From: a candidate division WWE3 bacterium RAAC2_WWE3_1
GTDB taxonomy: Bacteria > Patescibacteriota > WWE3 > UBA101185 > UBA10185
Direction: 5' to 3'
DNA length: 64,000 bases
Assembly (NCBI GenBank): GCA_000503835.1
Contig: CP006914.1
Location: 785,680 to 849,679, forward strand
Shown: positions 5,229 to 53,498 of the stretch, piece after piece
How the letters are laid out: each line of letters opens with the position of its first letter
How positions within the stretch are numbered: position 1 is the stretch's first letter
Position numbers and translations under genes: made by a program
The notes under the pieces: generated by a model
What the model was told of the DNA's origin: nothing
Databases searched by the model: none
Seen by the model: only the letters and a program-made list of their open reading frames with translations

Positions 5229-5229
5229 T

Positions 5230-15779: not shown

Positions 15780-15784
15780 GCCGT

Positions 15785-15812: not shown

Positions 15813-15915
15813 TGTTTTCAGCGTATGAAAAATGTATTAACCGGCCAACTTTTCCGTATGCGAAATCTATCTACTAAGGGTATGGTGCGAGGAGGTAACA
15901 TTCTCCGTACACGGA

Positions 15916-17127: not shown

Positions 17128-17531
17128 TTTTGCGGAGAGTTGTTAAGGGCATTCTCTATCATTCTTCTTGTAACACAAAAACCCAGATCCCTGATTATCT
17201 TTTCGTTGATGAAAATCGGGATGTTGAACATTTTGCAGACCTTGAACGCCACCATCGGCGGTATATTAATATCAGTAAATTTTCTTCCCTGCTTTAAAGT
17301 TAAATATGAGTAGAAAGTGTTGTCCTGAAATTTATATATTTTTGAGGAAACAATCTCTGCTTTTAATGTAGTGAGGATGTGACGGAAAATAGTATAAAGA
17401 TCGGGGTAGACAACATCTGACCTATCCCTAAGTTCCATCGGGATAAGAACTTTCGGATTTTTGCACAAAAAATAAGCAGTCTTCTTGGCGTCCCCGGGTA
17501 TAGTAGTGATATACTTTGCTTCCTTATACAT
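17121..17531 (-). CDS. Hypothetical protein, possibly DUF151/bifunctional-nuclease-like.
   Basis: Weak pattern resemblance only. Confidence 0.25.
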   Translation of the reverse strand: MYKEAKYITTIPGDAKKTAYFLCKNPKVLIPMELRDRSDVVYPDLYTIFRHILTTLKAEIVSSKIYKFQDNTFYSYLTLKQGRKFTDINIPPMVAFKVCKMFNIPIFINEKIIRDLGFCVTRRMIENALNNSPQNY

Positions 17532-17572
17532 TTTCCCGATGTTAGAATATAGCTGTATAATTTACTTATTGT

Positions 17573-17998
17573 ATGCAACTGCTCAAAGATATTTACAATA
17601 ACGCCGAAGCCCTGAAAGGGCGCAGGCTCATAACCGCGACCGTTGCCCTTTCAATAGTTTTCCTGGGAATCGGCATTTTCATAGGTTATCTTAACAACCT
17701 CATATTAAAAAAAGGTGAAATATCAATGGATACGGTACTTCCTCCCCCTGTGGCAGACACTACAATCGTGCTTGAGGGCCGCGTAGTCTATACCAACCCG
17801 GAATACTACCCCGGTGATGAGATATCATTTGTTTTGACAGATGCCTCCGGTAAGGAAGTTTCTTTACTCAGGGCCGATGACGACAAACTGGCTTTAGCCG
17901 AGGGGTTAAATGTTAAAGTGCGGGGCGATGAGATGAGGACCAAGTCAGGAACCAAGTATTTAATGGTCAGGGAGGTTATTATTAATGCCGCAAATTGA
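17573..17998 (+). CDS. Hypothetical membrane-anchored protein.
   Basis: Single N-terminal TM (ITATVALSIVFLGIGIFIGYL). Overlaps the ftsE start. Confidence 0.3.
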   Translation: MQLLKDIYNNAEALKGRRLITATVALSIVFLGIGIFIGYLNNLILKKGEISMDTVLPPPVADTTIVLEGRVVYTNPEYYPGDEISFVLTDASGKEVSLLRADDDKLALAEGLNVKVRGDEMRTKSGTKYLMVREVIINAAN

Positions 17999-18671
17999 AT
18001 TTATCAACGTTTCCAAAGAATATGATCCCGGCAAAAAAGTGCTGGATGATGTGACGTTCAAAGTTGAACCAGGTGAGTTTATGTTCGTAGTCGGGCCTTC
18101 GGGTGCAGGTAAGTCGACGATTATTAAATTGCTGACCAAAGAAGAAATGCCCGAAGTCGGAGACATCCTGTTTAACGGTGAGAGTATTTTGAATATTTTA
18201 AAGGAGTCCGTACCCGATCTGAGAAGAAAGATTGGCGTTGTTTTTCAGGACTTCAGGCTTCTGGACTCAAAAACTGTTTTTGACAATGTCGCAGTGGCCC
18301 TGGAAGTTGCCGACTCAAATTTAGACGAGATCAGAAGCATCGTACCCAATGTTCTGAACATGGTCGGATTAACAGACAAAATGTTCAAGTATCCCAGACA
18401 GCTTTCGGGAGGAGAAAAACAAAAAGTCGCTATTGCCCGCGCATTAGCCCACGAGCCCGACGTCATATTAGCCGACGAGCCTACAGGGATGATAGATCCT
18501 GATTCTGTGGATGATGTGCTCGAGGTTCTCGAAAAAATAAACTCCTTGGGTACCACGATCTTAATGGCCACGCACGACCAGGAGATTGTGAACGCGATGA
18601 AAAAGAGGGTGCTCCGTATCGAAAGAGGTCAGGTAATTTCGGATAAGAAGGGGGGAAAATATCGTGGCTAA
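17985..18671 (+). CDS. ftsE: Cell division ATP-binding protein FtsE.
   Basis: Walker A is GPSGAGKST; LSGGEKQKVAIARAL signature; 228 aa. Confidence 0.85.
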   Translation: MPQIEFINVSKEYDPGKKVLDDVTFKVEPGEFMFVVGPSGAGKSTIIKLLTKEEMPEVGDILFNGESILNILKESVPDLRRKIGVVFQDFRLLDSKTVFDNVAVALEVADSNLDEIRSIVPNVLNMVGLTDKMFKYPRQLSGGEKQKVAIARALAHEPDVILADEPTGMIDPDSVDDVLEVLEKINSLGTTILMATHDQEIVNAMKKRVLRIERGQVISDKKGGKYRG

Positions 18672-19551
18672 AAGTTGGTCAATTTTCATGTCGAATATAA
18701 AGAAGGAGAAGTTGCTGAGCGTTTCAAATATCCTGATAATGACCGTTACTTTCGTTCTGCTCGGGCTTCTTATAAATATTGTAGTATTCTCACAGACTGC
18801 GTTAAGGTATCTGGAGGATCAAGCCCAGGTTACGGTTTTTTTCAAAGATGATTTCGGTGAAGACAAAATTGCCGTTTTAAAAGACAATCTGGCAAAAGAT
18901 AAAAGAGTATCCGAAATGGTGTATGTTTCAAAAGAAGACGCGCTGCGAATTTTCAGGGAAATAAATAAGGATGAACCTGTGTTGCTCGAGTCGGTCTCGG
19001 CTAGCATACTTCCTGCGAGTTTGGAAGTCCGCGCTGGAAATATTTCCAACCTAAAACCTTTAGCCGAAGAACTGAAGCTTTTGGATGGTGTGGAAGAAGT
19101 TAGATATTTTGAAGACGTGGTGTCCCGTTTCAAATTTTGGAGCACGGTAGTTTATATCGTTGGCACACTTTTGGTTCTGATATTTTTCGTGATCTCCTAT
19201 TCCGTAGTCATTGCTGCTCTGAGAACAACCATAAATTCTAAAGGCGTAGAGTTTGAAATCATGAAAGTAGTGGGAGCGTCTGATGACTACGTTAAATCAC
19301 CTCTTATACATCAGGGCGTGTTTTTCGGATTGTTCTCATCTTTTATAGCCTCCGTGATAATGATTTTGCTTGGGGTTGGAATTACGCTTGCCAATGTATT
19401 TCCCAAGGGATTGGGCCTTGGTTTTTTACCGGGTGTTTTTATGGCGCCGTGGGTTTTCTCAATAATTCTCACCTTCATCTTGCTTCTTTCAGGTTTCCTC
19501 CTGGGTTACCTCGGAAGCTCGGCGGCTATCAAAAAATATCTGAATTATTAA
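18664..19551 (+). CDS. ftsX: Cell division permease FtsX.
   Basis: Four TM topology with a large first periplasmic loop; immediately after ftsE. Confidence 0.8.
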   Translation: MAKSWSIFMSNIKKEKLLSVSNILIMTVTFVLLGLLINIVVFSQTALRYLEDQAQVTVFFKDDFGEDKIAVLKDNLAKDKRVSEMVYVSKEDALRIFREINKDEPVLLESVSASILPASLEVRAGNISNLKPLAEELKLLDGVEEVRYFEDVVSRFKFWSTVVYIVGTLLVLIFFVISYSVVIAALRTTINSKGVEFEIMKVVGASDDYVKSPLIHQGVFFGLFSSFIASVIMILLGVGITLANVFPKGLGLGFLPGVFMAPWVFSIILTFILLLSGFLLGYLGSSAAIKKYLNY

Positions 19552-19555
19552 AGTT

Positions 19556-20800
19556 ATGCTAAGTAAAAAAACGTTGTTATGGGTTTTACCCTTAATATTT
19601 TTTCTGATTCCTTTGATGACTGTTTTGGGTCAGACGACAGCAAATCCAGATGATGTTGAAGAATTGGAAGAAAAAATTGAAAAATATGAGGTGAAGATAA
19701 ACGAACTTCAAGGCAGAGCAAACACTTTAGCGAATGAAATAGAATACATGAACAGCCAGATCGGTCTTACAGAGCTTAAAATCCAAAACTCCGTTGCAAA
19801 GATAGCCAAGACTGAAAAAGAGATCCAAAAACTAGCAGGGGACATCGAAGATTTGAAAGCACGTATAGTAAAGCTGGAAAAGTCCATCGATTACCAAAAA
19901 GATGTATTGTCGGCAAGGATACGGGAACGGTATAAATCGCGGGATGAAAACGCCATGGTTGTGCTCTTTGGTTCGATAACGCTCGAAACCATGGTTCAAA
20001 AAGTAGAATATCTCAAAGCAATGGAAAGGTACGACAACAAACTTCTGGTAGAAATGGGAGACACAAAGACCAGGTACGACATGCAGAAAAATCTGTTCGA
20101 GCAGAAAAAAGAGGAGGAGGAAAAGCTAAAGTCCCAGCTGTTGAATGAAAAAGCTGCGCTGGATGTTTATAAAGGACAGTTGGACGCTCAGAAAGAGGAA
20201 AAAAAACAATTATTGGAGTCTACCCAGAACGACGAAAGTAAATACCAGCAACTCCTAAGGGAAGCTCAACGTGAGTTGGAGCAGATACTTGGGGCTGTCG
20301 GAGTGTTAATTAATACTGAATCAAGAGAAGTAGAAAAGGGAGAATTGATAGGAATACAAGGCAACACCGGACGTTCGTCGGGAGAACACCTACATTTTGG
20401 AGTTTATAGGTATTCGTCGTTGTCAGAGATAAACGGATGGAATTGGTATTACAGCAATACTGTCGACCCTCTCAAGAAATTGGAATCAAAAACTGTCACC
20501 TGGTATGACTGCGGTGTGTCAACTAAAACAGTGGGAAAAGGTGATTGGGATTGGCCAATAGCTGGTTCTGTAAAAGTTACAAATAGTTACGGCGACAATT
20601 GCTATAAATATACAGATAATGGGGGGAAAATGCATCCTGCCCTAGACTTAGTTGGGGCGCCAAGTTCTCCAATATACGCGGTTGATGACGGTGATGCCTA
20701 TTTCTGTAAAAATTGTCTCGGTGATGGTGCTAACGGAGTTTTCATTTTCCATGACGATGATTATATGACCGTGTACTGGCACTTACAGAACTACAAGTAA
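19556..20800 (+). CDS. EnvC/PcsB-like coiled-coil protein with an M23 (LytM) domain whose segments are in permuted order.
   Basis: Signal/TM, then a long coiled coil, then GNTGRSSGEHLHFGVY (the C-terminal M23 motif). About 75 aa later comes WPIAG...MHPALDLVGAPSSPIYAVDDGDAYF...VFIFHDDDYMTVYWHL (the N-terminal M23 motifs), after which the protein ends. Confidence 0.6.
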   Translation: MLSKKTLLWVLPLIFFLIPLMTVLGQTTANPDDVEELEEKIEKYEVKINELQGRANTLANEIEYMNSQIGLTELKIQNSVAKIAKTEKEIQKLAGDIEDLKARIVKLEKSIDYQKDVLSARIRERYKSRDENAMVVLFGSITLETMVQKVEYLKAMERYDNKLLVEMGDTKTRYDMQKNLFEQKKEEEEKLKSQLLNEKAALDVYKGQLDAQKEEKKQLLESTQNDESKYQQLLREAQRELEQILGAVGVLINTESREVEKGELIGIQGNTGRSSGEHLHFGVYRYSSLSEINGWNWYYSNTVDPLKKLESKTVTWYDCGVSTKTVGKGDWDWPIAGSVKVTNSYGDNCYKYTDNGGKMHPALDLVGAPSSPIYAVDDGDAYFCKNCLGDGANGVFIFHDDDYMTVYWHLQNYK

Positions 20801-29385: not shown

Positions 29386-29462
29386 TGGTCGGGGTGACAG
29401 GACTCGAACCTGCGGCCTTTCGCACCCCATGCGAACGCGCTAGCCAACTGCGCCACACCCCG
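29386..29462 (-). tRNA. tRNA-Pro (anticodon GGG).
   Basis: The reverse complement CGGGGUGUGGCGCAGUUGGCUAGCGCGUUCGCAUGGGGUGCGAAAGGCCGCAGGUUCGAGUCCUGUCACCCCGACCA folds as a cloverleaf. Acceptor is 7 bp, T-loop TTCGAGT, U33, anticodon GGG, G37, encoded CCA. Confidence 0.85.
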
Positions 29463-37999: not shown

Positions 38000-39086
38000 C
38001 ATCCCGGATCCGGTTTTTCAAACGACCCTATTTATTATAATTTTTGCCTTTTTTGTTGTGCTGTCCATAAGAAAGGACGCGAAACCACATGAATTGGATC
38101 ATGGTCACACCGATGAATTGAAAGGGCTGGCCATATTAATGGTGTTTTTTTCGCATATCGGATACTTTCTTTCCACGGACGACAGATTCTTATTTCCCCT
38201 ATCAATAGCGGCCGGTGTGGGAGTTAACATCTTTCTATTTTCGTCGGGGTTTGGGCTCACAAGCTCGGAGCTAAAAGTTAAAAAAACGTGGAAAGAATTT
38301 TATATGAAACGGTTGAAGACCATTTTCATTCCTATGTGGGTTGCGTTGCTTATCATCTTGGCCGCAGACTATTTTTTGCTTGGAAAGACTTACGAAATGC
38401 CGGTTATTATTAAGAGTTTCTTAGGATATTTTCCGGTTGCCGACATTTTCACTTCGATGAATTCCGCATTGTGGTATTTCACGTTCATTCTTTTTTACTA
38501 TCTTATGTTTCCAATCGTATTCCGTAGAAGTCAGCCATTGTTTTCGGCCTTAGTTATGCTTCTGCTGGGATATTTGGTGACCCAACTTGCTTTACCGGTA
38601 ACTAAGGATTTGTTAAAGCTTTATAAACTTCACATACTGTTATTTCCGCTGGGAATGGCTTTTGCCCGGTTAAACACGAAGAAGCCGGGGGTATGGTTTC
38701 AGGAATTTTTATTAAAAATGTTTCACAAACCTTTGTCGGCGTGGGTTGTCCGTTATCTTATCGTGGCCGGATTACTTTTTGTGTTTGGTTACACAGCGGT
38801 ACATTCGGGTGTGGGAAAGGGGATTATGGCGGAACAGCTGTCGAGTATCGTAACCATGCTGGTACTGATAGCCGCGTTTTTATTAAAGGACGTTCACTCT
38901 GAAGTGTTGACCATTCTGGGTAAATATTCTTACGAGATTTATTTACTGCACTGGCCGATTATGTACAGACACGATTTTATTTATAAATATGTTCCGGCTT
39001 CTTTTGGAACCTTACTTTACTTATTGTTATTTGTAGGAACCGGGTTTGTTTTGAACAGACTCACGCGGCGGATATTGGTCAAGTAA
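37989..39086 (+). CDS. Acyltransferase family 3 membrane protein (OatA-like).
   Basis: LKGLAILMVFFSHIGYF; about 10 TM segments. Confidence 0.7.
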   Translation: MRINIPDPVFQTTLFIIIFAFFVVLSIRKDAKPHELDHGHTDELKGLAILMVFFSHIGYFLSTDDRFLFPLSIAAGVGVNIFLFSSGFGLTSSELKVKKTWKEFYMKRLKTIFIPMWVALLIILAADYFLLGKTYEMPVIIKSFLGYFPVADIFTSMNSALWYFTFILFYYLMFPIVFRRSQPLFSALVMLLLGYLVTQLALPVTKDLLKLYKLHILLFPLGMAFARLNTKKPGVWFQEFLLKMFHKPLSAWVVRYLIVAGLLFVFGYTAVHSGVGKGIMAEQLSSIVTMLVLIAAFLLKDVHSEVLTILGKYSYEIYLLHWPIMYRHDFIYKYVPASFGTLLYLLLFVGTGFVLNRLTRRILVK

Positions 39087-39131
39087 GATTTATTGGACAT
39101 GACAAAATTCCTTATCCGGAACCTGCGGATA

Positions 39132-39320
39132 GCATCACAACACCTACCTTGATAGTTTGGGCACCGGCGATAAAGTGTTACCTCTGAGTATGAGAAAAGA
39201 GCTGAGCAAAAAAATAAAAGGCTGGCAATTCCTTGAAATTCCCGGAGGTCGCAATGCCCGCCAAGAATCATTGAAAGATTTTAACGCTTTGGTGATGGAG
39301 TTTATAAACCGCGACTAAGG
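39132..39320 (+). pseudogene. Remnant of the C-terminus of an alpha/beta-hydrolase gene.
   Basis: Translates to ...DSLGTGDKVLPLSMRKELSKKIKGWQFLEIPGGRNARQESLKDFNALVMEF, the typical C-terminal strand, helix and His region of an alpha/beta hydrolase. There is no upstream body. Coordinates are approximate. Confidence 0.35.
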
Positions 39321-39347
39321 AGCTGTGTTTCCAAACTCAGGTCCTTT

Positions 39348-40139
39348 TTAATTTATGCCGGTCAATTTAAGACTTTCGCCCGTGTCCGGTTTTGTTTCCA
39401 GAACCATTGCACCTACTTCCGAGCAGTAGTGTTTGAATTCTTTTGCGTCGGGTTCAAGGGGAGTCCAGTCATACATTTTTACGCAATCTTTGTAGGAACC
39501 GAGTGCAATCTGGATCGGTTCACCGACAGTGGAAACGTCCCTCATGTCCTCTGCCTTACCTTTGTAATATTCCTGTCTGTACGAATCCCCTACTACATGA
39601 GCAGCTTTTATCCAAATACCCGGTTGAGCCCCGTCAACTCCTGCAAGCCATGCCCCCTCGTGATCCAGCAGCCGGCCGTCCTCATAATTATTAACATCCT
39701 CGCCGAAATACCAGACGTTGCCGTAAATATCCTGAGCTAAATAATCTTTGGTCTCTTCCACAAGTTCGTCGTCGAGCCAAACTTTGTCTAGGTAAACCAA
39801 TGTTTTTACCCCCAATATTTCTTTTATGTCTCCGGAAATTGTTATTTCGACCCTCTCGAGGCCGTCCTCCGTATCCCCCTCGTATATCAGTTTTCTGCCA
39901 ACAGGAAGACTAAAATATTTATTATTAATATTTGTACTTGTTAAGAATAGGGAGGGATCGACATTTGCCGGGTCTACCTGTTTTGCACTTTGCTTTTCTG
40001 TTATTTTGTCGGAGACAGTTCGTGTGTCAGAAATTTCCACAGCGTCATTTTGGCTTTTAGCGTTTTTATTTAAATAAATTATGGATAGAACGAAAATTGC
40101 CAATACAGCTGTCAAAATCACCAGAAATCTGGTTCTCAT
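39348..40139 (-). CDS. Hypothetical secreted protein.
   Basis: N-terminal TM; no recognised motif. Confidence 0.3.
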   Translation of the reverse strand: MRTRFLVILTAVLAIFVLSIIYLNKNAKSQNDAVEISDTRTVSDKITEKQSAKQVDPANVDPSLFLTSTNINNKYFSLPVGRKLIYEGDTEDGLERVEITISGDIKEILGVKTLVYLDKVWLDDELVEETKDYLAQDIYGNVWYFGEDVNNYEDGRLLDHEGAWLAGVDGAQPGIWIKAAHVVGDSYRQEYYKGKAEDMRDVSTVGEPIQIALGSYKDCVKMYDWTPLEPDAKEFKHYCSEVGAMVLETKPDTGESLKLTGIN

Positions 40140-40192
40140 ATATAGACAATTATATATATAATGCTCGGATTGTCAATGTTGTGGGGTGTTAG

Positions 40193-40738
40193 ATGCGATA
40201 TAATATTTCGGATATGAGAAACACCGAGACAATAGAGAATCTACCTCAACTTTTTAATGATCCTGTGGAGTATCTGACCTGTTTTAGGGACAGTGCTTCG
40301 TACAGAAATAGTTATGCGAAGTTTTATGAAGGGAAAGAATTTTCACAGGAGGTGTCTGAAATTGACAAAAGGGATGTATTCGAAGGCGATGAGACTTGCA
40401 GAAAATCGCTGATAGAGTTTGCCAGGACACAGGACATGATATTGATGTATACCCCCGAGTATTACGGTGAGAGTTTTAAAGACAACATAAAAGATTATTT
40501 TTCACTTATAAAAGACTTTGCCAAGGGCAGGGTTTCGGGCGGGGAGGGTGTAGCGGCTTATGACCGGCTTCGCGGTTCTTATCACGACGCGGCCGCGCAG
40601 GAGTTGTCTGATTCCATGGGCATATCTCATAGGCTGGCTCGGGGGTTAATACAGGTAATGACGATTCATGAGGGGTTGGATACCTTCGATTCTGCCGGTC
40701 AGGACGAACGACGCAGAATGATGTCCATGCTTAGGTAA
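40193..40738 (+). CDS. Hypothetical protein.
   Basis: ORF only. Confidence 0.3.
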   Translation: MRYNISDMRNTETIENLPQLFNDPVEYLTCFRDSASYRNSYAKFYEGKEFSQEVSEIDKRDVFEGDETCRKSLIEFARTQDMILMYTPEYYGESFKDNIKDYFSLIKDFAKGRVSGGEGVAAYDRLRGSYHDAAAQELSDSMGISHRLARGLIQVMTIHEGLDTFDSAGQDERRRMMSMLR

Positions 40739-40850
40739 CAGCCTGATACTAATAGCTTGTTTGTACTAACAAGGTGGGTTTATCTAACGGTTTCTGTTTC
40801 CTCTGTATCTGACTGTTTTTATACTTATTTACATAAAGTAAAATAAGGGT

Positions 40851-41315
40851 ATGGATCACGTCGCAATACTACGCAAAGCAAAAATTACCAAAGGAGATAA
40901 CTTGCTGGGAGACATACTAGCCGGCACAAAAACAATTGAGTCAAGATGGTATGTTAATAAAATTAGTCCCTGGAACAAAATTAAAATAAATGATTTTGTT
41001 TACTTTAAAGAGTCGGGGTCTCCGGTTACCGCAGTTGCAAGAGTTTCAAAGGTAATACAATACGAGAACTTAGATAAAGATACCGTTAACCGGATTATCA
41101 AAGATTATGGTAAACAAATTGCACCTAACGCGTCCGAAAGCGAACTTCAATCTTGGGCCGCGAAAGAAATTAACAAAAGATATTGCATACTAATATTTCT
41201 AACCGGCGTTAAGAATGTTCCGGCGTTTGGCATAACCAAAAAGGGATACGGCATTTCATCCGCATGGCTATGTGTAGGGAATATTGAGAAGGTCAGATTG
41301 GCTTCCCACGACTAG
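40851..41315 (+). CDS. ASCH (PUA-like) domain protein.
   Basis: ILAGTKTIESRWY ASCH-like motif. Confidence 0.5.
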   Translation: MDHVAILRKAKITKGDNLLGDILAGTKTIESRWYVNKISPWNKIKINDFVYFKESGSPVTAVARVSKVIQYENLDKDTVNRIIKDYGKQIAPNASESELQSWAAKEINKRYCILIFLTGVKNVPAFGITKKGYGISSAWLCVGNIEKVRLASHD

Positions 41316-42301
41316 AGCTTGTAGTCAAGTCTTACGGGCAGTTCGTGTTTAGTGTGATTTTCACGATAATCGCTAATAAGCTTGTTGTATATCGGGGACA
41401 GTTCGGTTAACCTTTTCACACTTTTACCGACCAGTACTTTCGGATTTACTATTCTTATTTTCTTTGGAAATATGACGTCAGGATTTTTTCTGTCCTCGTA
41501 CACAATCATATGGTTATTATATTTTGCCAGCCATTTCTGTATTCGTTTGTTTTTTGAACGTTTAAGTTTATCTGTTAATTCAATATCGTCACTAAACCAG
41601 TCCTTTTCTTTCAACACTCTATTTCTGACTGCGTACTTAACTAAATTTCCGAAATCGTTATTGAAATGTGCTTCCGCAGGTGATCCATAATACATAAGAT
41701 TTAAGAGATAGAAGTTAAATGAGTATATAAATGCCGCTTCGGTGTCTGAAAATACAAATTCATTATTGTGCACTTTCAAACTTTTCAGAACCCGATCAAC
41801 TTGTTGTCTCGAGAGAATTTGTAAATGCAGACCATCCCTGAGAGCATAGTCTATTCTGTCAGCACAAATATCCGGCAGGTCATTTTCCAGTAAAGAATAC
41901 TTTTTATCATGCAAAAGCCGATCCGGGTCATATCCCAGTTTGATAAGTAATTTTGAAAGACCCGAGGATTCAATAAATTTATGTTGTTGTAACTCATGAA
42001 ATTCAGTACCGGTGTATTTTTCTTGAAATGCGTAAGTAGACACGTGCGATAAAGCCGTATGTGAAACGTCGTGGATCAGTCCGGCAACCTGTTCTTCTTT
42101 TGATGCCCCAAAGTTCTTTAAAAGTAAATAAACACCGATACTATGGTCATAGCGTGTTGCGTTTCTCTTTAGTTCAAAAAGGTACCCATATGTGGATATC
42201 CAGATATTTTTTATTCTCTGCAAGGCCGGATGTTTGATTATTTTGGTGATATCTTTGTCCTGAAGATTTGTATTTCCCCATACCGCATCATATATTTTCA
42301 T
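41312..42301 (-). CDS. HD-domain phosphohydrolase with a dNTP-triphosphohydrolase-like motif.
   Basis: RYDHSIGVY...GLIHDVSHTALSH and ADRIDYALRD. Confidence 0.6.
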   Translation of the reverse strand: MKIYDAVWGNTNLQDKDITKIIKHPALQRIKNIWISTYGYLFELKRNATRYDHSIGVYLLLKNFGASKEEQVAGLIHDVSHTALSHVSTYAFQEKYTGTEFHELQQHKFIESSGLSKLLIKLGYDPDRLLHDKKYSLLENDLPDICADRIDYALRDGLHLQILSRQQVDRVLKSLKVHNNEFVFSDTEAAFIYSFNFYLLNLMYYGSPAEAHFNNDFGNLVKYAVRNRVLKEKDWFSDDIELTDKLKRSKNKRIQKWLAKYNNHMIVYEDRKNPDVIFPKKIRIVNPKVLVGKSVKRLTELSPIYNKLISDYRENHTKHELPVRLDYKL

Positions 42302-42393
42302 GCGCTGATTGTACCAAAAGTGTCCTATCCTGTAAGCGGTCTCTCCGGGTTATGTGAATTGGCCGTTGTATTTAGCCGGGACTTTTGTAGAAA

Positions 42394-42834
42394 GTGCGTG
42401 TGGGGTATTATAGTAAACATATGCGAATAGGAGTTGTTGGTAGTATGCAATATACAGAAAGAATGCTGGAACTTAGAGATGAGTTAAGAAATCTGGGGCA
42501 TGAGGCCTATATAACAACACTATCACAACCTTTTGTTGGTAAAACTGATGAGGAAAAGGAAGTTATAAAGCTCCACCAGAAAAATAATATGGACGCAATC
42601 AGGGAGTTCTGGAACTTAATGCAGGGTGGGGATGCAATTTTAGTAGCTAACTACGATAAAAATGGAATAGAAAACTATATAGGCGGGAATACTCTTATGG
42701 AGATTGGCTTTGCCCATGTATTGAATCAGAAAGTTTACTTATTAAACCCGGTTCCGGAAATTAAGTTTTACAAGACAGAAATTGAAGCGGTAAAACCGGT
42801 TATTCTGCACGGTGATTTAACTTTAATCCGGTAA
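42394..42834 (+). CDS. Nucleoside 2-deoxyribosyltransferase-like (SLOG-fold) protein.
   Basis: MRIGVVGSM...DAILVANYD...GGNTLMEIGFAHVLNQKVY. Confidence 0.45.
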   Translation: MRVGYYSKHMRIGVVGSMQYTERMLELRDELRNLGHEAYITTLSQPFVGKTDEEKEVIKLHQKNNMDAIREFWNLMQGGDAILVANYDKNGIENYIGGNTLMEIGFAHVLNQKVYLLNPVPEIKFYKTEIEAVKPVILHGDLTLIR

Positions 42835-43058
42835 ATTATTGGCTAGGCACGTCGGTCAGGAACTATTTTACAATAAATTTAATTATCGAAAAGTTGACTA
42901 CATACTTCTTCTGTATGTGTTAGATTACAATTAAGGAATGCCTCGTAGTGGTGTTAAATAGATTTGTCTAGAAGTAAAAACTAAATTATCACATACAGTA
43001 GCGTGAGAGAAAGGTCCTGTTGTCGGAGGGAGGCGCGGGAGTTAGTTATTAATAAAAT

Positions 43059-43086
43059 AAAAGGCACATTTTGTGGTGTGCCTTTT
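43059..43086 (-). terminator. Rho-independent terminator for the gene at 43110-43508.
   Basis: AAAAGGCACA, 8-nt loop, TGTGCCTTTT. On the minus strand it is followed by TTTTATTTTATT. Confidence 0.5.
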
Positions 43087-43109
43087 GGTGTAATACCCAA
43101 AATTCAATA

Positions 43110-43508
43110 CTACGTTGCTGTGAATACAATGTTTCCGACTGTTGCTTCAATCTTCAGCTTACTGAAGCCTCGTTCAAGAAAGATCAGCACCCTATTTTTA
43201 ACAACACCGGCAACGGTCTCAGGGGTGGCTCCAACGTAGTACCGTACCTTGTCACCTTCAAGCCGGATAAATGCGCATCTGTTATCTCCTTCAATTACCA
43301 GACGGGCTAATCCGCACTCTTTTTCCAACACAAAAATACTTATATCGTAGTATTTCCGTGGGTCACACCCCACTTTTTTAAGAAATACTGATATTGCATT
43401 TTTGTTGTCTGGGTTGGGTTGAACTATTACCGCTTCTAACTCTTTGTCACCTTTCCCAGCTTCGATATCAACATCAAAAATAGATTTGATTTTCTTAGTC
43501 TCTCCCAC
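43110..43508 (-). CDS. Hypothetical protein.
   Basis: ORF with a terminator just downstream. Confidence 0.3.
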   Translation of the reverse strand: MGETKKIKSIFDVDIEAGKGDKELEAVIVQPNPDNKNAISVFLKKVGCDPRKYYDISIFVLEKECGLARLVIEGDNRCAFIRLEGDKVRYYVGATPETVAGVVKNRVLIFLERGFSKLKIEATVGNIVFTAT

Positions 43509-43699
43509 AGCATTCTCCTTTTCTTATTATTTATGCGGATAGTACTACAAGGCAGGTAGAATGTAAAATTTAGTATGATTATTTAGTTGTTACGACAACA
43601 AAAACTCTTTTTTGGCTGAGTACTAGGGTTTAGAACCAACATATTATTCTCACTATAACAAAAATACCCGGTCTTATTGTGTAGTGCTAGAATAACTTT

Positions 43700-44515
43700 A
43701 TGTATACTCCTGAGGATCGTGAAAATGTACTAAATAAACTATCCATTTTATTTCCTCAAGTACCGAATGTTGAAGGTGTCATTTTAGTAGGATCTGGTGC
43801 AAAAGGATTCTTTGATGAGTACTCGGACGTTGATTTGTCTGTGGTTGTAGAGCCTGCCGAGGAAACAAACAAAACATGGAGCCAAATAAATAATGTCATA
43901 AAAAATAATTTTGATGTATTTCATTATTCTCTAACTCAGTACGGGGATAACAACTACTTAACATTGTTTATACTCACAAATTATTTGCAGATTGATGTGG
44001 GAGTCATAGCACTGGATAACCTTATAGCTAAAAGACCGTTGTGGAATATCTTATATGATAAGAACAGCAGAGTTCTTGAGAAAATGAAAGCTACAGAAAA
44101 GCTTAAACAACAGAAACCTATTTCAGATGTGTCAAATGAAACAACCGAAAACTTACATTATCATACCCAAAACGCTGCGTTTGCCATTAAAAGAAATCGT
44201 GTATTTAGAGCAGCGAAAGAAATAGAGGAAATCAGAGAACTTACGATAAAACTTTTTGGTATTTATAACAATCTTGAGACTAAACATCATAGAGAAGTTG
44301 ATGACTTTGATGACTCGTTTAAGAAAAAATTAATTGCTGCTGTACCAGAGAAATTAACTATCGATATGTTAAGCCAATCTTTAGTAAAAAATATCGATAT
44401 GTATTTTGAGGTGATCAAAATGGTTTCGGACACCGATGGTTGGAATAAGGACGAAATGTTTATAAAGAAATTTATTAATGAAGTACTGTTATTAAACCCC
44501 GAATTTAGGTTATAA
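43700..44515 (+). CDS. Pol-beta-superfamily nucleotidyltransferase with a C-terminal helical domain.
   Basis: GSGAKGFFDEYSDVDLSVVV is the G-S...D-x-D NTase motif. Confidence 0.5.
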   Translation: MYTPEDRENVLNKLSILFPQVPNVEGVILVGSGAKGFFDEYSDVDLSVVVEPAEETNKTWSQINNVIKNNFDVFHYSLTQYGDNNYLTLFILTNYLQIDVGVIALDNLIAKRPLWNILYDKNSRVLEKMKATEKLKQQKPISDVSNETTENLHYHTQNAAFAIKRNRVFRAAKEIEEIRELTIKLFGIYNNLETKHHREVDDFDDSFKKKLIAAVPEKLTIDMLSQSLVKNIDMYFEVIKMVSDTDGWNKDEMFIKKFINEVLLLNPEFRL

Positions 44516-44773
44516 AATTTTTAGCGTTCGTCAAACAGAGTTGGTAGTTCGGATACTTATTTCCAGAAGTTAGCTTTAGCAGGAAATTAAAAAGTATTTA
44601 ACACTTCGTTGTCACTTGCGTGTCGATGTTGGCTGGCGAACTTGACCGTAGGTGGAACCAAATCCTCCCTAGTTTACTCAAGACCTACGAAAAGCTCAAG
44701 AACCTTGGGTTTACCTACGAAAACGGCACTGTCTCTATAAAACCCCTGAAATTTAATTGGAAAGGAGAGGTTT

Positions 44774-45271
44774 ATGAATGACCTTATAGTTTCTTGTGCC
44801 AAAAAATGGCTCCACCTATCACCGGATCTGGTCCAATCCCGGCTATATAACGAGGCGGATTTCTACAAACAGTTCATAGCGGATCTGAAGCGCTGTAAGC
44901 GGGAAGTCATTATCGAAAGCCCGTTCATATCCTCCAACAGGATGTATTCGCTCATACGGCCATTCGAAGACCTGATTAACCGGAAAATCAAGGCCTATGT
45001 CATTACCCGCCATCCGGATGAACATGATTTGACCATGAAGCAGCAAGCTGAAGAGGCAATCAGGCGTTTTGAGACTATCGGCGTACAAGTACTGCTCACC
45101 CTCGATTACCACCACCGGAAATTAGCCATTTTAGACAGATCGATCTTATGGGAAGGAAGTCTAAACATCCTTTCCCAAACGTGCAGCCGGGAAATCATGC
45201 GACGCATCAGCAGCACAAGCTTATCTGAAGAAATGTTTGACTATCTCAAATTAGAGAGGTTTATCTATTAG
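44774..45271 (+). CDS. Phospholipase D-like (single HKD) nuclease-family protein.
   Basis: HHRKLAILDRSILWEGSLNI is an H-x-K-x4-D motif. Confidence 0.6.
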   Translation: MNDLIVSCAKKWLHLSPDLVQSRLYNEADFYKQFIADLKRCKREVIIESPFISSNRMYSLIRPFEDLINRKIKAYVITRHPDEHDLTMKQQAEEAIRRFETIGVQVLLTLDYHHRKLAILDRSILWEGSLNILSQTCSREIMRRISSTSLSEEMFDYLKLERFIY

Positions 45272-45298
45272 TATAGATTTTGAGGTATAATTATCTCT

Positions 45299-45520
45299 AT
45301 GAGTACAAAAACCAAAAAATATCAGATCAACGAAAAAGATATCGACACTGTCTTAAATATCCTTAAGCGTACAGATCCGAAGCATGCCACACCAGAAATG
45401 GCTATCGATATCCTCGAGCATTTGCAAGCTACTTTTCATACCATGAGACATTATGATCCTGAAACTTTAGTTAAACTCTATGAAGAGCTAAAAAAGCAAA
45501 AGCAATTGAGTAGAAATTAA
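45299..45520 (+). CDS. Small hypothetical protein (73 aa), translationally coupled to the M23 gene.
   Basis: TAATG overlap with the next gene. Confidence 0.35.
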   Translation: MSTKTKKYQINEKDIDTVLNILKRTDPKHATPEMAIDILEHLQATFHTMRHYDPETLVKLYEELKKQKQLSRN

Positions 45521-46119
45521 TGGAATACAAGACCAAAACAAATTTAATTCTTCCGTTTCATGATAAATTAATGGTAAGTAATGGTGGTAGGTCCGCCGAA
45601 ACTAACAATCATTTCCGACCTGCAGGCTCGGGACCTCAGAACCAACTTTATGCCTACGACTTTCGCTCAGAAACGACTGGCAAGGAGACAAAACTTGAAG
45701 ATTTTACTGTATTTGGGATAGATGTTATCGCACCAGGAGAAGGTGAAGTTATACAAGTTGTGAATGGATCATTTGATTGCGAACCAGGACAATTTGATCG
45801 GAGTATAGGCGTAGGTAATATGGTTATCATTGACCATATGAACGGAGAATATAGCTTGTTGTGCCATTTTAAGCATGATTCTATCGTTGTAAAAGTAGGC
45901 GATATTGTAAAACAGGGGCAGAAACTTGGCCGGTGTGGAAACACCGGAAATACCAACCAGCCACATATACATTTCAATCTTCAAGACGGAGTGATGAGCT
46001 ATAGCGCGAGGGCATTGCCAGCTCAATTTGCCAAAATTTTAGTTAATGATGTGGAAAGAACTAATTACGAGCCTGTTCGATTCGAAAAGGTCACCAATAT
46101 TAAGCAAACAACACCTTAA
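45520..46119 (+). CDS. M23 family metallopeptidase (canonical motif order), with no signal peptide.
   Basis: VIIDHMNGEYSLLCHF...GNTGNTNQPHIHF. Confidence 0.7.
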   Translation: MEYKTKTNLILPFHDKLMVSNGGRSAETNNHFRPAGSGPQNQLYAYDFRSETTGKETKLEDFTVFGIDVIAPGEGEVIQVVNGSFDCEPGQFDRSIGVGNMVIIDHMNGEYSLLCHFKHDSIVVKVGDIVKQGQKLGRCGNTGNTNQPHIHFNLQDGVMSYSARALPAQFAKILVNDVERTNYEPVRFEKVTNIKQTTP

Positions 46120-46340
46120 AACGTCAGTACTTCCGATGATTTCACCTTGAGAGCAGTAAGGATTTTCTTCAAAGTCACTACAGTTGGAATCGCTTCACCT
46201 CGCTCAACCCTGGCGTAATAGTTACTATTCAAACCAGCCTTATCCGCGACATCCACCTGTTTCATGCCCTTCTTAAGCCTGATTTTCCGGAGTTTTGAGG
46301 CAATTTCTTGAACTGACTTGTTATCTTGATCAGAGCGCAT
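46116..46340 (-). CDS. XRE-family HTH transcriptional regulator.
   Basis: LRKIRLKKGMKQVDVADKAGLNSNYYARVERGEAIPTVVTLKKI. Confidence 0.75.
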   Translation of the reverse strand: MRSDQDNKSVQEIASKLRKIRLKKGMKQVDVADKAGLNSNYYARVERGEAIPTVVTLKKILTALKVKSSEVLTF

Positions 46341-46344
46341 ATAA

Positions 46345-46359
46345 GGTTAGTATACTACC
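46345..46359. promoter_or_regulatory. Near-palindromic operator candidate 5 nt upstream of the XRE start.
   Basis: GGTTAGTATACTACC; the core AGTATACT is perfectly palindromic. Confidence 0.3.
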
Positions 46360-46543
46360 AGATTGATTTATTTGATCATATTATTGTTCCTGAAATTGTT
46401 TTGCAGAAAACGTGGTCTCTGCGGTGCCATGTTTTGTAAAGCAGGCCAATATGAGTCAAAAAGCCGAAAACTGATTTGGCTGGAGCATTAATAAAAGTTT
46501 CTTCTTTTAGTGTATACATATTCTTATTTTCTCTTATCGGACA

Positions 46544-48763
46544 TTACTTTTGAATAGGTTCCGCGTTATTATCCGACGTTGCCTGTGGCTTGGGGATCTT
46601 TTTTAATGTTCTGGTATAAATCACCACTTTGGCATCCTTCATAAGTTTCGATGAAAGTTGCTGGGAAAGCTCGCTGTGTTTTTCTGCGGTTAACCGTTCG
46701 CGGATATATTCCTTTGATTGCTCAAACGTAAGCTGTTCAGGTTCCGAACGATCCAGAACTTCGACGATGTAGATATAACCATTCGCTTCAAACGGTGGGC
46801 CGATTTCTCCTTTGGGAATAGCCTGGACCTGCTCATGGTACTGATGCTTGACAATTTCTCCCATAAGATCCATTTCCTCTTCCACCCATTCGGCAACTTC
46901 GCCTCCTTTATCTTTTGTGGCTTCATCTTCCGAATATTGTTTGGCAACAGAAGCAAAATCTTCTCCTTTTTTCAGAGGTCCGGGGACGAGCTTTTTGTAC
47001 GCTTCGTTAGCTTTGTCGAAGGCCTTTTTGTGTTCATCGTCGGTTGCGTTATCGGAACTACCCGCACGAATGACGATCTGACGAACCTTTGACTTGGCAG
47101 GTTTTATAAATTGCGGTTTGTTGCGGTTGTAGTACTCCTGGATATCTTTGTCCTCAACTTTGATTTTCTCATCTACCTCCTCCTGTTCAAGCATCTGAGC
47201 CAGGACTTTCAGGCGCATCTCATCTTTGCGCTCCTTTGTTTCAGTTTGGGATACCTGGCTTAGACTGTCTTCGTATAAAAGCAAACGCTCGATAATTTTC
47301 TCAACCAATGCCTGCTTACCTTCAGTACCGGCGTATGAAGATAGAAACGAAAGCGGCAGTTCCTGATATTCTTCCCAGAATTCACCCAACGTAAACCGTT
47401 TGCCGTTGACGGTAAAGAGTGTCCTGTCGGCATTGTCGGTATAATATTTCTTTTCCGTCTCGGTCAGGACCGCCGTCTGCACCTGTGAGCGGATTTCCTC
47501 AAAGCTCTGCTGCCGTTCCGGCTGTTTGGAACTAAGTTTGGCAATGACAAATGAATCTTTGTCAACAATAACATCGCTTATCTGCTGCGGATCTAGCCGG
47601 AAAATCGCTTCTTCATAACCAGGATCGTTTTCTCCTTTGATCCTTGTTTCTCCGGTCTGGGGAAGCGGAGAGCCGGTTATTTCCTGATACACCTGGCCAA
47701 AATCGCTTCCGGAACGGATTTTCGATAAAGTCTGTTCGGCTTTTTCTTTAGCCTTCTTTTCATCAGCGCCTTTCGGAATACGGATTTCAAATACAACGGC
47801 CTGGGCTTTGACCAGATATTTATCCTTATTGGCATCATAGTAGTTACGCAGTTCCCAGTCGGCAGGTTCAGGAATGACCAACACCGCCGGATCACGGGTA
47901 ATTGAGGCTTTATTTTTCAGACCGGTAATGTAGTTTTGGACAAACTGATCTTCTTTTTCACTCTGAAGTTTCGTTTTTATTTCTTCACGGACATCGGTCA
48001 GCGTTTTATCTCCGAAATCCTTTCTGTTGGCGTCATAGTAGGCACCGATGTCTCCCTCGGTTACCCCGAGTTGCCCTTTATGCATTTGGGCATGAAGCTC
48101 ATCCAGGTTTATTTCCTCGGTAATATGCTTCATCACATGGGAAAATTCTTTATCCTGATCGGGTTTGCGGGTAGCCTGCCAGCGTTTGACGATTTCATCG
48201 GTGATCATTTCCTGAACGATCAATGCATACCCTTGGGGAGACTTAAGCTGCATTTGCGTCGCCTTGTCCTCAACGAGAGACGCCAGATGCTTTTCAACAT
48301 CCTCAATCGTGATTCTGCCGCCGTCATATGCCGCGACGACATTAGGGGCTGGTGGCCAGGGGGCAAAAATGTCTTCACGAAATCTAAATATAAGAAATGC
48401 TGCAACTATAATTACGCCCAAAACAATCTTCTTCTTTTTTGATAAGTGAATTTTGGGGAGGGGTAATCGTGATGGCTTACTCTCCGGTGACTGCTCTTCG
48501 GCCTTAATAGACTCTATCGTTTGTACCGGGGGAATTTCCTGAGGTGGAATTTCTTTCGGAACCTCAGCACCTTTTTTATCAGGTTTCTTTTTCTCGTGTT
48601 GAATCCGCACCGGTTTTTCAGGCAGAGGTTTCTGTTTTTGGCTGCCTCCGGAAAAACCCAATGATTGTCTGATGTCAGCAAACACCTGACCCCAGTCCTC
48701 ACCGGATTTGTCTTTAGCGGCCACCTTCGGTTTGTGGTGGGAAGACATTGACTTTTGTTTCAT
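46544..48763 (-). CDS. PpiD/SurA-like membrane-anchored peptidyl-prolyl isomerase (parvulin domains), with a Lys/Pro-rich N-terminus.
   Basis: Single TM (IVLGVIIVAAFLIF). The PpiC-type block GEDFASVAKQYSEDEATKDKGGEVAEW...GEIGPPFEANGYIYIVEV. Confidence 0.6.
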   Translation of the reverse strand: MKQKSMSSHHKPKVAAKDKSGEDWGQVFADIRQSLGFSGGSQKQKPLPEKPVRIQHEKKKPDKKGAEVPKEIPPQEIPPVQTIESIKAEEQSPESKPSRLPLPKIHLSKKKKIVLGVIIVAAFLIFRFREDIFAPWPPAPNVVAAYDGGRITIEDVEKHLASLVEDKATQMQLKSPQGYALIVQEMITDEIVKRWQATRKPDQDKEFSHVMKHITEEINLDELHAQMHKGQLGVTEGDIGAYYDANRKDFGDKTLTDVREEIKTKLQSEKEDQFVQNYITGLKNKASITRDPAVLVIPEPADWELRNYYDANKDKYLVKAQAVVFEIRIPKGADEKKAKEKAEQTLSKIRSGSDFGQVYQEITGSPLPQTGETRIKGENDPGYEEAIFRLDPQQISDVIVDKDSFVIAKLSSKQPERQQSFEEIRSQVQTAVLTETEKKYYTDNADRTLFTVNGKRFTLGEFWEEYQELPLSFLSSYAGTEGKQALVEKIIERLLLYEDSLSQVSQTETKERKDEMRLKVLAQMLEQEEVDEKIKVEDKDIQEYYNRNKPQFIKPAKSKVRQIVIRAGSSDNATDDEHKKAFDKANEAYKKLVPGPLKKGEDFASVAKQYSEDEATKDKGGEVAEWVEEEMDLMGEIVKHQYHEQVQAIPKGEIGPPFEANGYIYIVEVLDRSEPEQLTFEQSKEYIRERLTAEKHSELSQQLSSKLMKDAKVVIYTRTLKKIPKPQATSDNNAEPIQK

Positions 48764-52377: not shown

Positions 52378-52473
52378 AGCTAGGTAATATGAATTCTCTG
52401 GGCAGCATCAATAACTTATTATTTTACTACAAATTGTAGGAGAATTGTGTCATAATTTCAAGAGGGTAGATAT

Positions 52474-53241
52474 ATGAATATTTTTAGCGCGATTTTGCTT
52501 GGACTTATTGAAGGAGTTACAGAATTTTTACCGATTTCATCAACCGGTCACATGATTCTAGTCTCCGATATTCTTAAGCTGCCTAATACTGATTTTCTGA
52601 AATCATTTGAGATAGCAATTCAAGTGGGAGCAATCTTTGCAATTATTGTCATGTACACACCAAGGTTCTTAAAGAATATTAGGGTATATCAGCTTCTTCT
52701 CTTCGCATTTCTGCCAGCAACAATAATTGGGTTCCTATTCTATGACTTTATTAAAACATATTTATTTAATCCAGCAATCGTTTCAGCAACACTAATAACA
52801 GGTGGAGTATTTCTTGTTTATTTTGATCGCAAGATAAAGAACCACTCAGAAAAGATTGAAAAGCTTGAGGAAATCTCCAGTAAAGATGCTTTTATTATTG
52901 GACTTTCACAAACTTTAGCCATGATCCCTGGAGTGTCGAGGGCGGCTGCAACTATCACGGGTGGAGTACTTCGAGGTTTATCCAAAAAACAAGCCATGGA
53001 ATTTTCGTTTCTTCTAGCAGTTCCAACAATGCTTGCAGCTACCGGATATGATTTGATAAAGACCTCGTCTAACTACTCAACATATGAATTTGGATTATTA
53101 GGGATGGGAAGTATTGTTTCGTTTGTATCAGCTTGGATAGCAGTTAGGCTCTTTATCAAAATCATAGACAAACATGGCTTAGCTTTTTTTGGTTATTACA
53201 GAATAATTTTAGGCGTGGTGTACTTGTTGTATTTTCAGTAG
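52474..53241 (+). CDS. uppP: Undecaprenyl-diphosphatase.
   Basis: LGLIEGVTEFLPISSTGHMIL. Confidence 0.85.
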   Translation: MNIFSAILLGLIEGVTEFLPISSTGHMILVSDILKLPNTDFLKSFEIAIQVGAIFAIIVMYTPRFLKNIRVYQLLLFAFLPATIIGFLFYDFIKTYLFNPAIVSATLITGGVFLVYFDRKIKNHSEKIEKLEEISSKDAFIIGLSQTLAMIPGVSRAAATITGGVLRGLSKKQAMEFSFLLAVPTMLAATGYDLIKTSSNYSTYEFGLLGMGSIVSFVSAWIAVRLFIKIIDKHGLAFFGYYRIILGVVYLLYFQ

Positions 53242-53498
53242 AAATATTTACTTCAATTGCTTAGCACTCTCTTCGGTCTTTGTTCAATTGGTTCACCTGA
53301 CGGTAAATCTACTTCTAAGGGGTTTACAGCTTCACCGTTTTTTAACATAGCGTATTGAAGATGAGCACCTATTAAGCCGACATATTCAATTTTCTAGTTT
53401 TGTTTGACTTCTGAATACGCTTTTGTCCCTTCGGGGTAAAAAAAAGTCCAAAGATAAAATTCAAGCCTTTGAATTCAAGGGGTTAACGTATCAGCAGT

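Follow-up and report, generated by a model that had tools for sequence, protein, structure and literature searches.

A block of 12 genes in the genome of the WWE3 bacterium RAAC2_WWE3_1 is best explained, at a probability of roughly 60%, as a species-specific mosaic islet, put together piece by piece at a hot spot of recombination and flanked by relics of genes, and not as one co-functioning system. The block occupies about 39.1-46.4 kb (some 7.3 kb; locus tags P147_WWE3C00001G0863 to G0872) of the window, a term that denotes here the whole stretch of 64,000 nucleotides (nt) that was analysed, on a contig of 878,109 bp. This genome of the Candidate Phyla Radiation (CPR, or Patescibacteria) was closed from Rifle aquifer sediment and has a G+C content (GC) of 0.43 and intergenic distances that average 66 bp; a complete pathway for nucleotide biosynthesis could not be recognised in it (PMC3812714).

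An earlier reading of the sequence alone had presented the block as an AT-rich accessory island of nucleotide- and nucleic-acid-acting genes and as a candidate conflict or defence island. Its accessory character is borne out by the absence of the block from the same site in four sister species that keep the HflK/HflC/rotamase flank, and by a right edge that cuts a host gene. Within the species the arrangement is stable, the same layout being found in 24 of the 24 long conspecific contigs read, three metagenome-assembled genomes (MAGs) from NCBI among them.

A slot with cargo that differs by species

The slot downstream of the PpiD-like rotamase gene is a recombination hot spot whose cargo differs from one species to the next. 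Relatives were searched with the rotamase proteins, one genome being kept per species, and four were obtained at 79-93% identity (L008, L009, L010 and L011). In all of them the flank formed by the aminotransferase, DsbA, CDF, HflC, HflK and rotamase genes is kept as far as the contigs reach. Downstream of the rotamase gene, none of the island genes and none of the left-flank genes was found over 10 kb in L008 and L009, 6.4 kb in L011 and 1.7 kb in L010; the block is not conserved with the same neighbours in any of the four. In L011, the slot contains two small genes followed by the core genes HhH-GPD, MscS, L19, PyrG (CTP synthase) and CBS, and in L009 it is taken by a two-component system, an ICMT-family methyltransferase and a heavy-metal P-type ATPase. 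A BacA gene directly follows the rotamase gene in L010. Finally, the L008 slot (13100-19680) encodes a protein resembling the SU10 portal, another that is DrmE-like (PADLOC, 4.5e-11) and a NERD-helicase aligned from end to end with the PADLOC model RTasNERD-Hel (E 3e-49), and no reverse transcriptase was seen in the L008 sequence examined. The L008, L009 and L011 records carry the title 'uncultured Gammaproteobacteria bacterium', and one contig of the four relatives is titled 'Candidatus Amesbacteria'; they are probably mislabelled or mis-binned WWE3 relatives. The gammaproteobacterial label was set aside, as identical proteins belong to WWE3 and the named homologs of the HD and NDT-fold proteins described below come from Patescibacteria.

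The right junction of the block is exact and truncates a host gene, because the blastn homology of L008 and that of L011 both end at window base 46382, inside a gene of 154 amino acids (aa) that belongs to a family without assignment. This gene is intact directly after the rotamase gene in L008 (12245-12709) and in L011 (2134-2598). In the window, its first 46 codons persist as a relic (46382-46519, minus strand) that shows 89-91% tblastn identity to L008 and L011 over residues 1-46 only. A three-way alignment found the sequences unrelated beyond 46382, and the 3' part of the truncated gene was not found elsewhere in the window.

Another relic lies at the left edge (39100-39318, plus strand), between an Acyl_transf_3 gene and the island. 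It consists of about 70 codons and appears to be the frameshifted C-terminal remnant of an alpha/beta-hydrolase gene in which the position of the catalytic His has been lost. All 60 listed matches of its joined 72-aa translation were C-terminal ends of alpha/beta-hydrolases (best E 0.0013). It is less certain than the right junction because its two frames were joined by hand, the 53-aa open reading frame (ORF) alone giving no Pfam match. Both relics had been overlooked in the sequence-only reading. A derivation of the left relic from the alpha/beta-hydrolase gene of strain L007 was considered and rejected, the two being unrelated.

The MAG of this strain, GCA_003484695.1 (L007/L004, contig DNAZ01000009.1), shares 97% DNA identity with window 52378-39627, between the CDF gene and i263, and about 100% leftwards from 39470, and its proteins from HflC through most of the island genes are identical to those of the window. 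Beyond the CDF gene, identity falls to 68-76% and extra PadR, DsrE, DUF302 and alpha/beta-hydrolase genes are present, a pattern that indicates either strain recombination or a chimeric assembly. On the same side of the block, a BacA gene of the undecaprenyl-diphosphatase family (window 52474-53241, plus strand) has a GC of 0.362 and a GC at third codon positions (GC3) of 0.32, and L008 and L009, whose homology skips 52466-53469, lack the gene here; it is a second small variable insertion in the neighbourhood of the block.

The AT enrichment of the block is genuine but modest. With a GC of 0.392 it is the lowest 7.3-kb stretch of the window, every non-overlapping stretch having at least 0.3985 (mean 0.426, sd 0.013). 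Yet the shift is small (0.392 versus 0.425), and per-gene GC, GC3 and codon usage did not differ significantly between the block and the rest of the window (Mann-Whitney p 0.12, 0.10 and 0.44, respectively). The dip arises in part because the spacers are long and AT-rich, with a median gap of 104 nt versus 9 nt elsewhere and an intergenic GC of 0.363. Composition is moreover heterogeneous within the block, in which the nucleotidyltransferase gene has the lowest GC (0.328) and the PLD-family gene has a GC3 of 0.566 that is the maximum of the window. Outside the block, the lowest GC was observed in two adjoining genes at 14007-15417 (0.352 and 0.312), which may be a further small foreign patch.

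Strand alternation was found as described, with seven switches over the 12 genes, and one operon or system is disfavoured because the strands alternate and the genes have their own spacers. On the contrary, the short intergenic repeats that had been reported were not recovered as such: a repeat search of 38500-47000 returned only imperfect two-copy matches of 14-34 nt, mostly intragenic and at chance level, which were rejected as attachment (att) sites or as intergenic repeat families. The same search gave no significant direct repeats bracketing the block. Promoter-like and terminator-like counts equal the shuffled expectation, the exceptions worth noting being a terminator of the 132-aa gene and a perfect promoter before the 263-aa gene. 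All ORFs named in the sequence-only reading are present, and three had escaped it, of 263 aa (39348-40139, minus strand), 181 aa (40193-40738, plus strand) and 53 aa (44620-44781, plus strand). These and other genes without a family name are designated below by their length (i263, i181, i132, i73 and i53).

An integrase-mediated genomic island of the classical type has a recombinase gene, a tRNA or tmRNA anchor and flanking direct repeats, none of which was found in the block. In agreement with what had been noted, no ORF of the window contains a recombinase domain and no tRNA or Rfam match lies in or near the block, the only tRNA gene of the window being a tRNA-Pro at 29386-29462. Integration hot spots and defence islands with variable cargo between conserved core genes have been described in Enterobacteria and Pseudomonas. 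The slot resembles them by its fixed place beside the HflKC and rotamase genes, by its species-dependent cargo and by the presence of defence-like genes (L008) and metal-resistance genes (L009) in this cargo. It differs from them by the lack of an integrase, a tRNA, flanking repeats or a recognised defence system, and by its host, a member of the CPR whose genome measures 878 kb. Hot spots with variable islets are already known, and the block adds an example from a CPR genome.

The right-hand genes and a recombinase-bearing relative

Among the parts of the block, only the i53-PLD, i73 and XRE genes have independent evidence of being a mobile, co-inherited unit. It comes from one diverged locus of 5.3 kb (L019), which was recovered from a single metagenome scan and has about 75% DNA identity. 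Homology between the window and L019 is confined to 44611-46354 and is distributed over collinear blocks that hold the i53-like and PLD genes (44611-45270), i73 (45279-45520) and the XRE gene (46116-46354). In L019, PLD and i73 are separated by an ORF of 61 aa and by the gene of a large serine recombinase of 463 aa, in which Resolvase, Recombinase and Zn_ribbon_recom domains are present; a fragment of a recombinase and a class-IV aminotransferase gene that is truncated occupy the left end of the locus. The locus has no M23 gene, and its i73 and XRE genes overlap where they end. The origin of the island, formerly regarded as unclear, is in this way partly resolved for the right-hand module, whose homolog travels with a large serine recombinase.

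The module opens with i53 (44620-44781, plus strand), which overlaps the start of the PLD gene by 8 nt and is conserved in L019 with 79% aa identity and a ratio of nonsynonymous to synonymous substitution rates (dN/dS) of 0.245. The PLD gene (44774-45271, plus strand) encodes a predicted single-HKD, Nuc-like nuclease of 165 aa. This assignment agrees with the sequence-only reading and relies on a PLDc_2 match of 37 bits, above the cut-off of 27, and on the residues HRKLAILD-RSILWE-GSLN, which fit HxKx4Dx6GSxN. The protein is 76% identical to its L019 homolog, with a proportion of nonsynonymous differences (pN) of 0.15 against a proportion of synonymous differences (pS) of 0.77. The next gene, i73 (45299-45520, plus strand), encodes a small helical protein of 73 aa that is 73% identical to its homolog (pN 0.17 versus pS 0.95), which in L019 directly adjoins the XRE gene. 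In the window, the i73 stop shares TAATG with the start of the M23 gene (45520-46119, plus strand). The 199-aa product of the latter has a Peptidase_M23 domain (Pfam, 63 bits, above cut-off) and no hydrophobic N-terminus, in keeping with the earlier description of a 73-aa ORF coupled to a signal-less M23 protein. The last gene, on the minus strand, encodes a 74-aa helix-turn-helix (HTH) protein of the XRE family (46116-46340), also correctly named before (HTH_3, 52.9 bits, above cut-off), with 73% identity to the L019 homolog and a dN/dS of 0.135. With its upstream spacer it extends over 46116-46381, up to the right junction of the island.

In all four shared genes (i53, PLD, i73 and XRE) pN is far below pS, which speaks for purifying selection on the encoded proteins. 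In the two instances compared, the collinearity of these genes has outlasted synonymous saturation and two indel events, which suggests that i53-PLD, i73 and XRE are functionally linked. The i53 region itself (44611-44781) has 86% nucleotide identity to L019 1205-1375 and a pS of 0.31, versus 69-72% and a pS of 0.65-0.95 for PLD, i73 and XRE, which may point to a further constraint, for instance from a regulatory or RNA element that overlaps the ORF. In L019, upstream of the XRE homolog, three family-less ORFs lie in the same orientation (3986-5251, minus strand) without Pfam or PADLOC matches; by eye, one contains RHKIIH, an Rx4H motif that is HEPN-like, and one a D...ECK arrangement recalling PD-(D/E)xK nucleases.

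The M23 gene fills exactly the junction between i73 and XRE, the L019 homology stopping at 45520 and resuming at 46116, and it represents either an insertion in the window or a deletion in L019. Compared with LytM (2B44), its product has Val64 at the position of H210, the first Zn-ligand His, and retains D68 and PHIHF. Peptidase activity is uncertain because of this replacement. The best match of the domain in the PDB is the LytM domain of DipM, which we take to be catalytically inactive. The protein may therefore be a non-catalytic LytM-type factor instead of a peptidase.

Several known systems resemble parts of this module. Nuc of pKM101, Zucchini/MitoPLD and the catalytic domain of BfiI likewise contain one HxKx4Dx6GSxN motif in about 165 aa. 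The PLD protein differs from them in having neither the signal peptide of Nuc nor the DNA-recognition domain of BfiI, and in its association with two small conserved proteins and an XRE regulator. Its top PDB matches, designer PPR repeats, were rejected as repeat-driven noise, the next match being MitoPLD (E 0.2). In PADLOC it matched only the C-terminal PLD region of MkoC (model positions 991-1119 of 1136, E 3.8e-10), and the helicase/ATPase partner of the Mokosh system is lacking in the block. In the same way, the co-inheritance of a 74-aa XRE protein with a nuclease gene recalls C-protein-controlled restriction systems and XRE toxin modules. Here, however, there is no methyltransferase, and the XRE gene and the nuclease operon are convergent, with inserted genes lying between them. 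The XRE protein matched only generic HTH or 'Control_protein' models in PADLOC (E 6e-11).

Taken as a part of the mosaic, i53-PLD, i73 and XRE would be what is left of an element that elsewhere includes a large serine recombinase and here has received an M23/LytM gene. The single-HKD nuclease under an XRE-type regulator would then act as the addiction or exclusion module of the element, and an exclusion or addiction unit is indeed plausible. It is conceivable, if rather doubtful, that PLD, i53, i73 and XRE together form a compact module not described before, in which a nuclease would serve exclusion or addiction and which elements with large serine recombinases would spread among CPR bacteria.

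The same observations raise the question of whether the block in its entirety derives from a prophage or integrative element that decayed and lost its integrase, with XRE as the repressor, M23 as a lysin, PLD as a nuclease and the small ORFs as phage genes. In favor of such an origin are the serine recombinase, the recombinase fragment and the truncated class-IV aminotransferase gene of L019, the truncation of a host gene at the right edge, the portal-like gene in the same slot of L008 and the resemblance of the M23 protein to phage endolysin and tail families of PHROGs at the domain level. On the contrary, only 44611-46354 is homologous to L019, the HD and NDT-fold genes of the left half are chromosomal singletons elsewhere, the composition is heterogeneous within the block, and the block holds no structural phage genes and no att-like direct repeats. 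Scans of IMG/VR with PLD, M23, the NDT-fold alignment, HD and i73 found no relatives in viral contigs for any of these five, and the DNA of the entire block had no blastn match among phage and plasmid records. A single decayed element is thus an unlikely source for the block as a whole.

Predicted nucleotide-acting enzymes and orphan genes

The activities and physiological roles given here for the genes of the block are predicted throughout. Two of the left and central genes, encoding an HD phosphohydrolase and a protein with the fold of nucleoside 2'-deoxyribosyltransferases (NDT), do not appear to be rare accessory genes, because of the size of their families and of the contexts in which they are found elsewhere. 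This contradicts, for these two, the earlier statement that none of the genes has an obvious housekeeping role, since both belong to large Patescibacteria families found in housekeeping or nucleotide-metabolism contexts.

The HD phosphohydrolase (41312-42301, minus strand; 329 aa) appears to be of the short SAMHD1-like/COG1078 type, in line with the sequence-only assignment. It stands marginally below the Pfam HD cut-off (21.7 bits versus 22) and aligns to the COG1078/SAMHD1-like proteins 2HEK and 2Q14 at E of about 1e-6, with the H..HD..DRxDYxxRD residues in register; matches to SAMHD1 were weak. It has in common with 2HEK, 2Q14 and human SAMHD1 the metal-site and DRxDYxxRD motifs, and differs by its length, the matched chains having 371-626 aa, as well as by its sub-threshold Pfam score and the lack of a PADLOC match (none at E <= 0.1). 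In total, 865 homologs were found, nearly all of about 330 aa and ranging from 98% down to about 33% identity, the named ones coming from WWE3, Shapirobacteria and Patescibacteria. At 67-80% identity, four loci were examined and displayed four different neighbourhoods. The homolog neighbours RecJ/SecDF/PNP/HIT in L013 and radical-SAM/BipA in L023, and in L017 it lies between TopA on one side and CTP_transf_like, dCMP deaminase, HIT, ThyA, DHFR and SHMT on the other. The fourth locus is a WWE3 contig (L015) in which an ASCH homolog is close by.

The NDT-fold gene (42421-42834, plus strand; 137 aa) is divergent from the HD gene, and the start at 42421 fits the family. The deoxyribosyltransferase-like identity proposed earlier was recovered at the level of structure, the Pfam PF05014 score being only 13.9 bits versus a cut-off of 28.8 and a PDB sequence search giving no match. 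Identity to members of the superfamily (NDT, DNPH1/Rcl, MilB/BcmB and YtoQ) is 10-17%, and TIR/ThsB folds score nearly as well as NDT folds. E94 is invariant in the family within GGNT..E.GFA, and, judging from this motif and not from a structural superposition, it may be equivalent to the NDT nucleophile. More than 2500 homologs were found; the best 120 of them have at least 71% identity (71-100%) and originate from WWE3, Daviesbacteria, Nomurabacteria and others. This identity is unusually high for a cross-phylum comparison, in a protein without a close solved relative, and reflects either extreme constraint or frequent transfer. The gene is always single and its context varies, with BrnT/BrnA as neighbours in one locus (L020), NUDIX and HhH-GPD in another (L021), and a 306-aa Nuc_deoxyrib_tr protein and a phosphoribosyltransferase (Pribosyltran) in a third (L022). 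The HD and NDT-fold genes are adjacent only in RAAC2 and never occur together in the seven other loci examined.

The 3' end of the HD gene overlaps by 4 nt the 3' end of a gene for an ASCH-like protein (40851-41315, plus strand; 154 aa). The ASCH call is retained on a weak Pfam match (E 0.028, below cut-off), and the sequence carries GTKTIESR, which fits what we take to be the GxKxxExR signature; no meaningful PDB sequence match was obtained. A homolog with 58% identity lies 1.5 kb from an HD homolog in another WWE3 contig (L015).

As part of the mosaic, the ASCH, HD and NDT-fold proteins would be enzymes of the nucleotide and nucleoside pools, derived from near-ubiquitous Patescibacteria families and serving scavenging in a cell that lacks de novo synthesis. 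In this scheme, the HD protein would remove phosphate from (d)NTPs or (d)NMPs, cleavage or exchange of the base would fall to the NDT-fold enzyme, and modified nucleosides may be the substrates of the ASCH protein. For the HD and NDT-fold proteins, we infer that a role in scavenging or pool control in a nucleotide auxotroph is the most economical reading.

The nucleotidyltransferase (NTase) gene (43700-44515, plus strand) encodes 271 aa, with a pol-beta core, as stated in the sequence-only reading (Pfam Polbeta 30.6 and NTP_transf_2 28.8 bits, above cut-offs), and a C-terminal helical domain in an ANT/Lnu-like architecture. Only two distant homologs, at 41% and 37% identity, were found in 5.8 billion clusters, and the GSG...DxD...D catalytic residues are invariant with them. 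The AlphaFold2 (AF2) model has a mean predicted confidence (pLDDT) of 73.6, and its top Foldseek matches are ANT(6)-Ib (1.5e-8), LinB (3.4e-8) and ANT(4'), with TM-scores no higher than 0.3-0.46. ANT(6)-Ib, LinB/Lnu and ANT(4') have the same size and the same combination of a pol-beta core and a helical C-domain, at 9-13% identity to the NTase and template-modelling (TM) scores of 0.25-0.47 on a model of moderate quality. One homolog (P0141) overlaps the end of a DrrA-like ABC ATPase/ABC-2 permease pair, which resembles a DrrAB-like exporter. In NCBIfam the protein matched no resistance family and gave only MntA at 24.8 bits versus a cut-off of 60, and in PADLOC it matched PDC-S09, through an MNT-like NTase core only. 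The MNT-HEPN (type VII) toxin-antitoxin systems differ by their HEPN partner, of which there is none here, i132 and i53 having no HEPN or other family match, and by their size, as the MntA profile has 106 positions and the MNT chains in the PDB 108 aa. Judging from its predicted fold, the protein looks like an antibiotic-type small-molecule nucleotidyltransferase and not like a phage-defence NTase.

Its neighbour i132 (gene 43110-43508, minus strand; 43059-43508 with its hairpin) is close to an orphan, with two real relatives, at 58% and 35% identity, among 1.84 billion representatives. A third match, P0263 (1438 aa, over four stretches), was rejected as repeat-inflated, this being a repeated methyltransferase-like protein. 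The strong terminator reported after this gene is present as an intrinsic-terminator-like hairpin at 43086-43059, with a 10-bp stem and a T-run. A pairing of i132 with the NTase was considered and found unsupported, the two contigs with NTase homologs having no i132-like neighbour, although one of them is only 1.1 kb long. In the piecemeal assembly, these genes would constitute a part made of an orphan and an ANT/Lnu-like enzyme that would inactivate a small-molecule toxin or antibiotic by nucleotidylylation.

At the left end, i263 (39348-40139, minus strand) encodes 263 aa with a predicted N-terminal hydrophobic anchor or signal, and i181 (40193-40738, plus strand) 181 aa. Neither had a match in Pfam, PADLOC, NCBIfam, PHROGs or the PDB, and they would be lineage-restricted genes. 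A perfect TTGACA-16-TATAAT promoter (12/12 sigma-70 consensus) lies upstream of i263 (40176-40149, minus strand) and faces a 10/12 site for i181 on the opposite strand. The gene i263 is dispensable, being frameshifted by a deletion (39471-39626) in the conspecific MAG GCA_003484695.1.

Defence, core metabolism and the meaning of the islet

The proposal of a defence or conflict island was examined with PADLOC-DB v2 scans of the 12 proteins of the block. No complete known or candidate defence system was recognised, the matches being isolated domains, namely the PLD part of MkoC, the NTase core of PDC-S09 and HTH control proteins. In PHROGs and NCBIfam, only generic M23 matches, including those to phage endolysin and tail families, and the MntA core were obtained. 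The view of the entire block as an anti-phage or conflict island, whose genes would deplete nucleotides or cut invading DNA, draws on its variability between species, on the DrmE-like and RTasNERD-Hel-type genes that the slot holds in L008, and on the report that CPR genomes contain a high density of defence systems, possibly including undetected ones (PMC12259885). It is nevertheless improbable. There is no multi-gene match, the HD and NDT-fold proteins belong to very large families whose genes are single in housekeeping contexts and never together in the other loci, and the NTase resembles antibiotic NTases and has no HEPN partner. Alternating directions and separate spacers are not those of an operon, and the five genes scanned have no viral-contig relative. 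The defence reading thus survives only in a weakened form, in that the slot takes defence genes in the sister species L008.

According to the opposite view, the genes belong to ordinary core metabolism and form a cluster for nucleotide salvage in a nucleotide auxotroph, without accessory or conflict character. This view is very unlikely: it accords with the family sizes and nucleotide-metabolism neighbours of HD and NDT-fold, the lack of nucleotide biosynthesis in RAAC2 (PMC3812714), the host-like codon usage and the fixation of the block in all conspecific contigs read, but four sister species lack the block at this position, its edge cuts into a host gene, the NTase and i132 have almost no relatives, one strain has a frameshift in i263, and the PLD/i73/XRE module, which travels with a recombinase elsewhere, contradicts it for the right half.

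The reading as a piecemeal mosaic has points of its own that weigh against it. The sister loci end before any Acyl_transf_3, GDSL or TspO homolog, so that only the right boundary is mapped; the stretch without synteny may exceed the block in length, and part of the difference could stem from a rearrangement instead of an insertion. The absence of ASCH, i181, i263, PLD and M23 in the sister species refers to this slot. The element remnant depends on one comparison locus of 5.3 kb. For the NTase, the model is of moderate quality (pLDDT 73.6, TM 0.4-0.46) and the exporter context is a single case. The 71-85% cross-phylum identity of the NDT-fold protein in variable contexts could reflect horizontal spread and not core status. 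Finally, PADLOC-DB dates from 2023 and derives mostly from non-CPR genomes, and the lack of matches in it is weak evidence.

As CPR genomes are tiny, each accessory kilobase is informative, and here a WWE3 genome of 878 kb keeps a recombination hot spot with cargo swapped between species. The islet provides several leads, which include a PLD-nuclease/XRE module tied to a serine recombinase, an ANT-like NTase in an uncultivated lineage and a 137-aa NDT-fold protein with at least 71% identity across CPR phyla among its best 120 homologs. More generally, nucleotide-acting domains that are known from defence systems may be core scavenging enzymes in nucleotide auxotrophs, and calls of defence islands in CPR genomes therefore need to be checked for synteny and for the distribution of the families involved.

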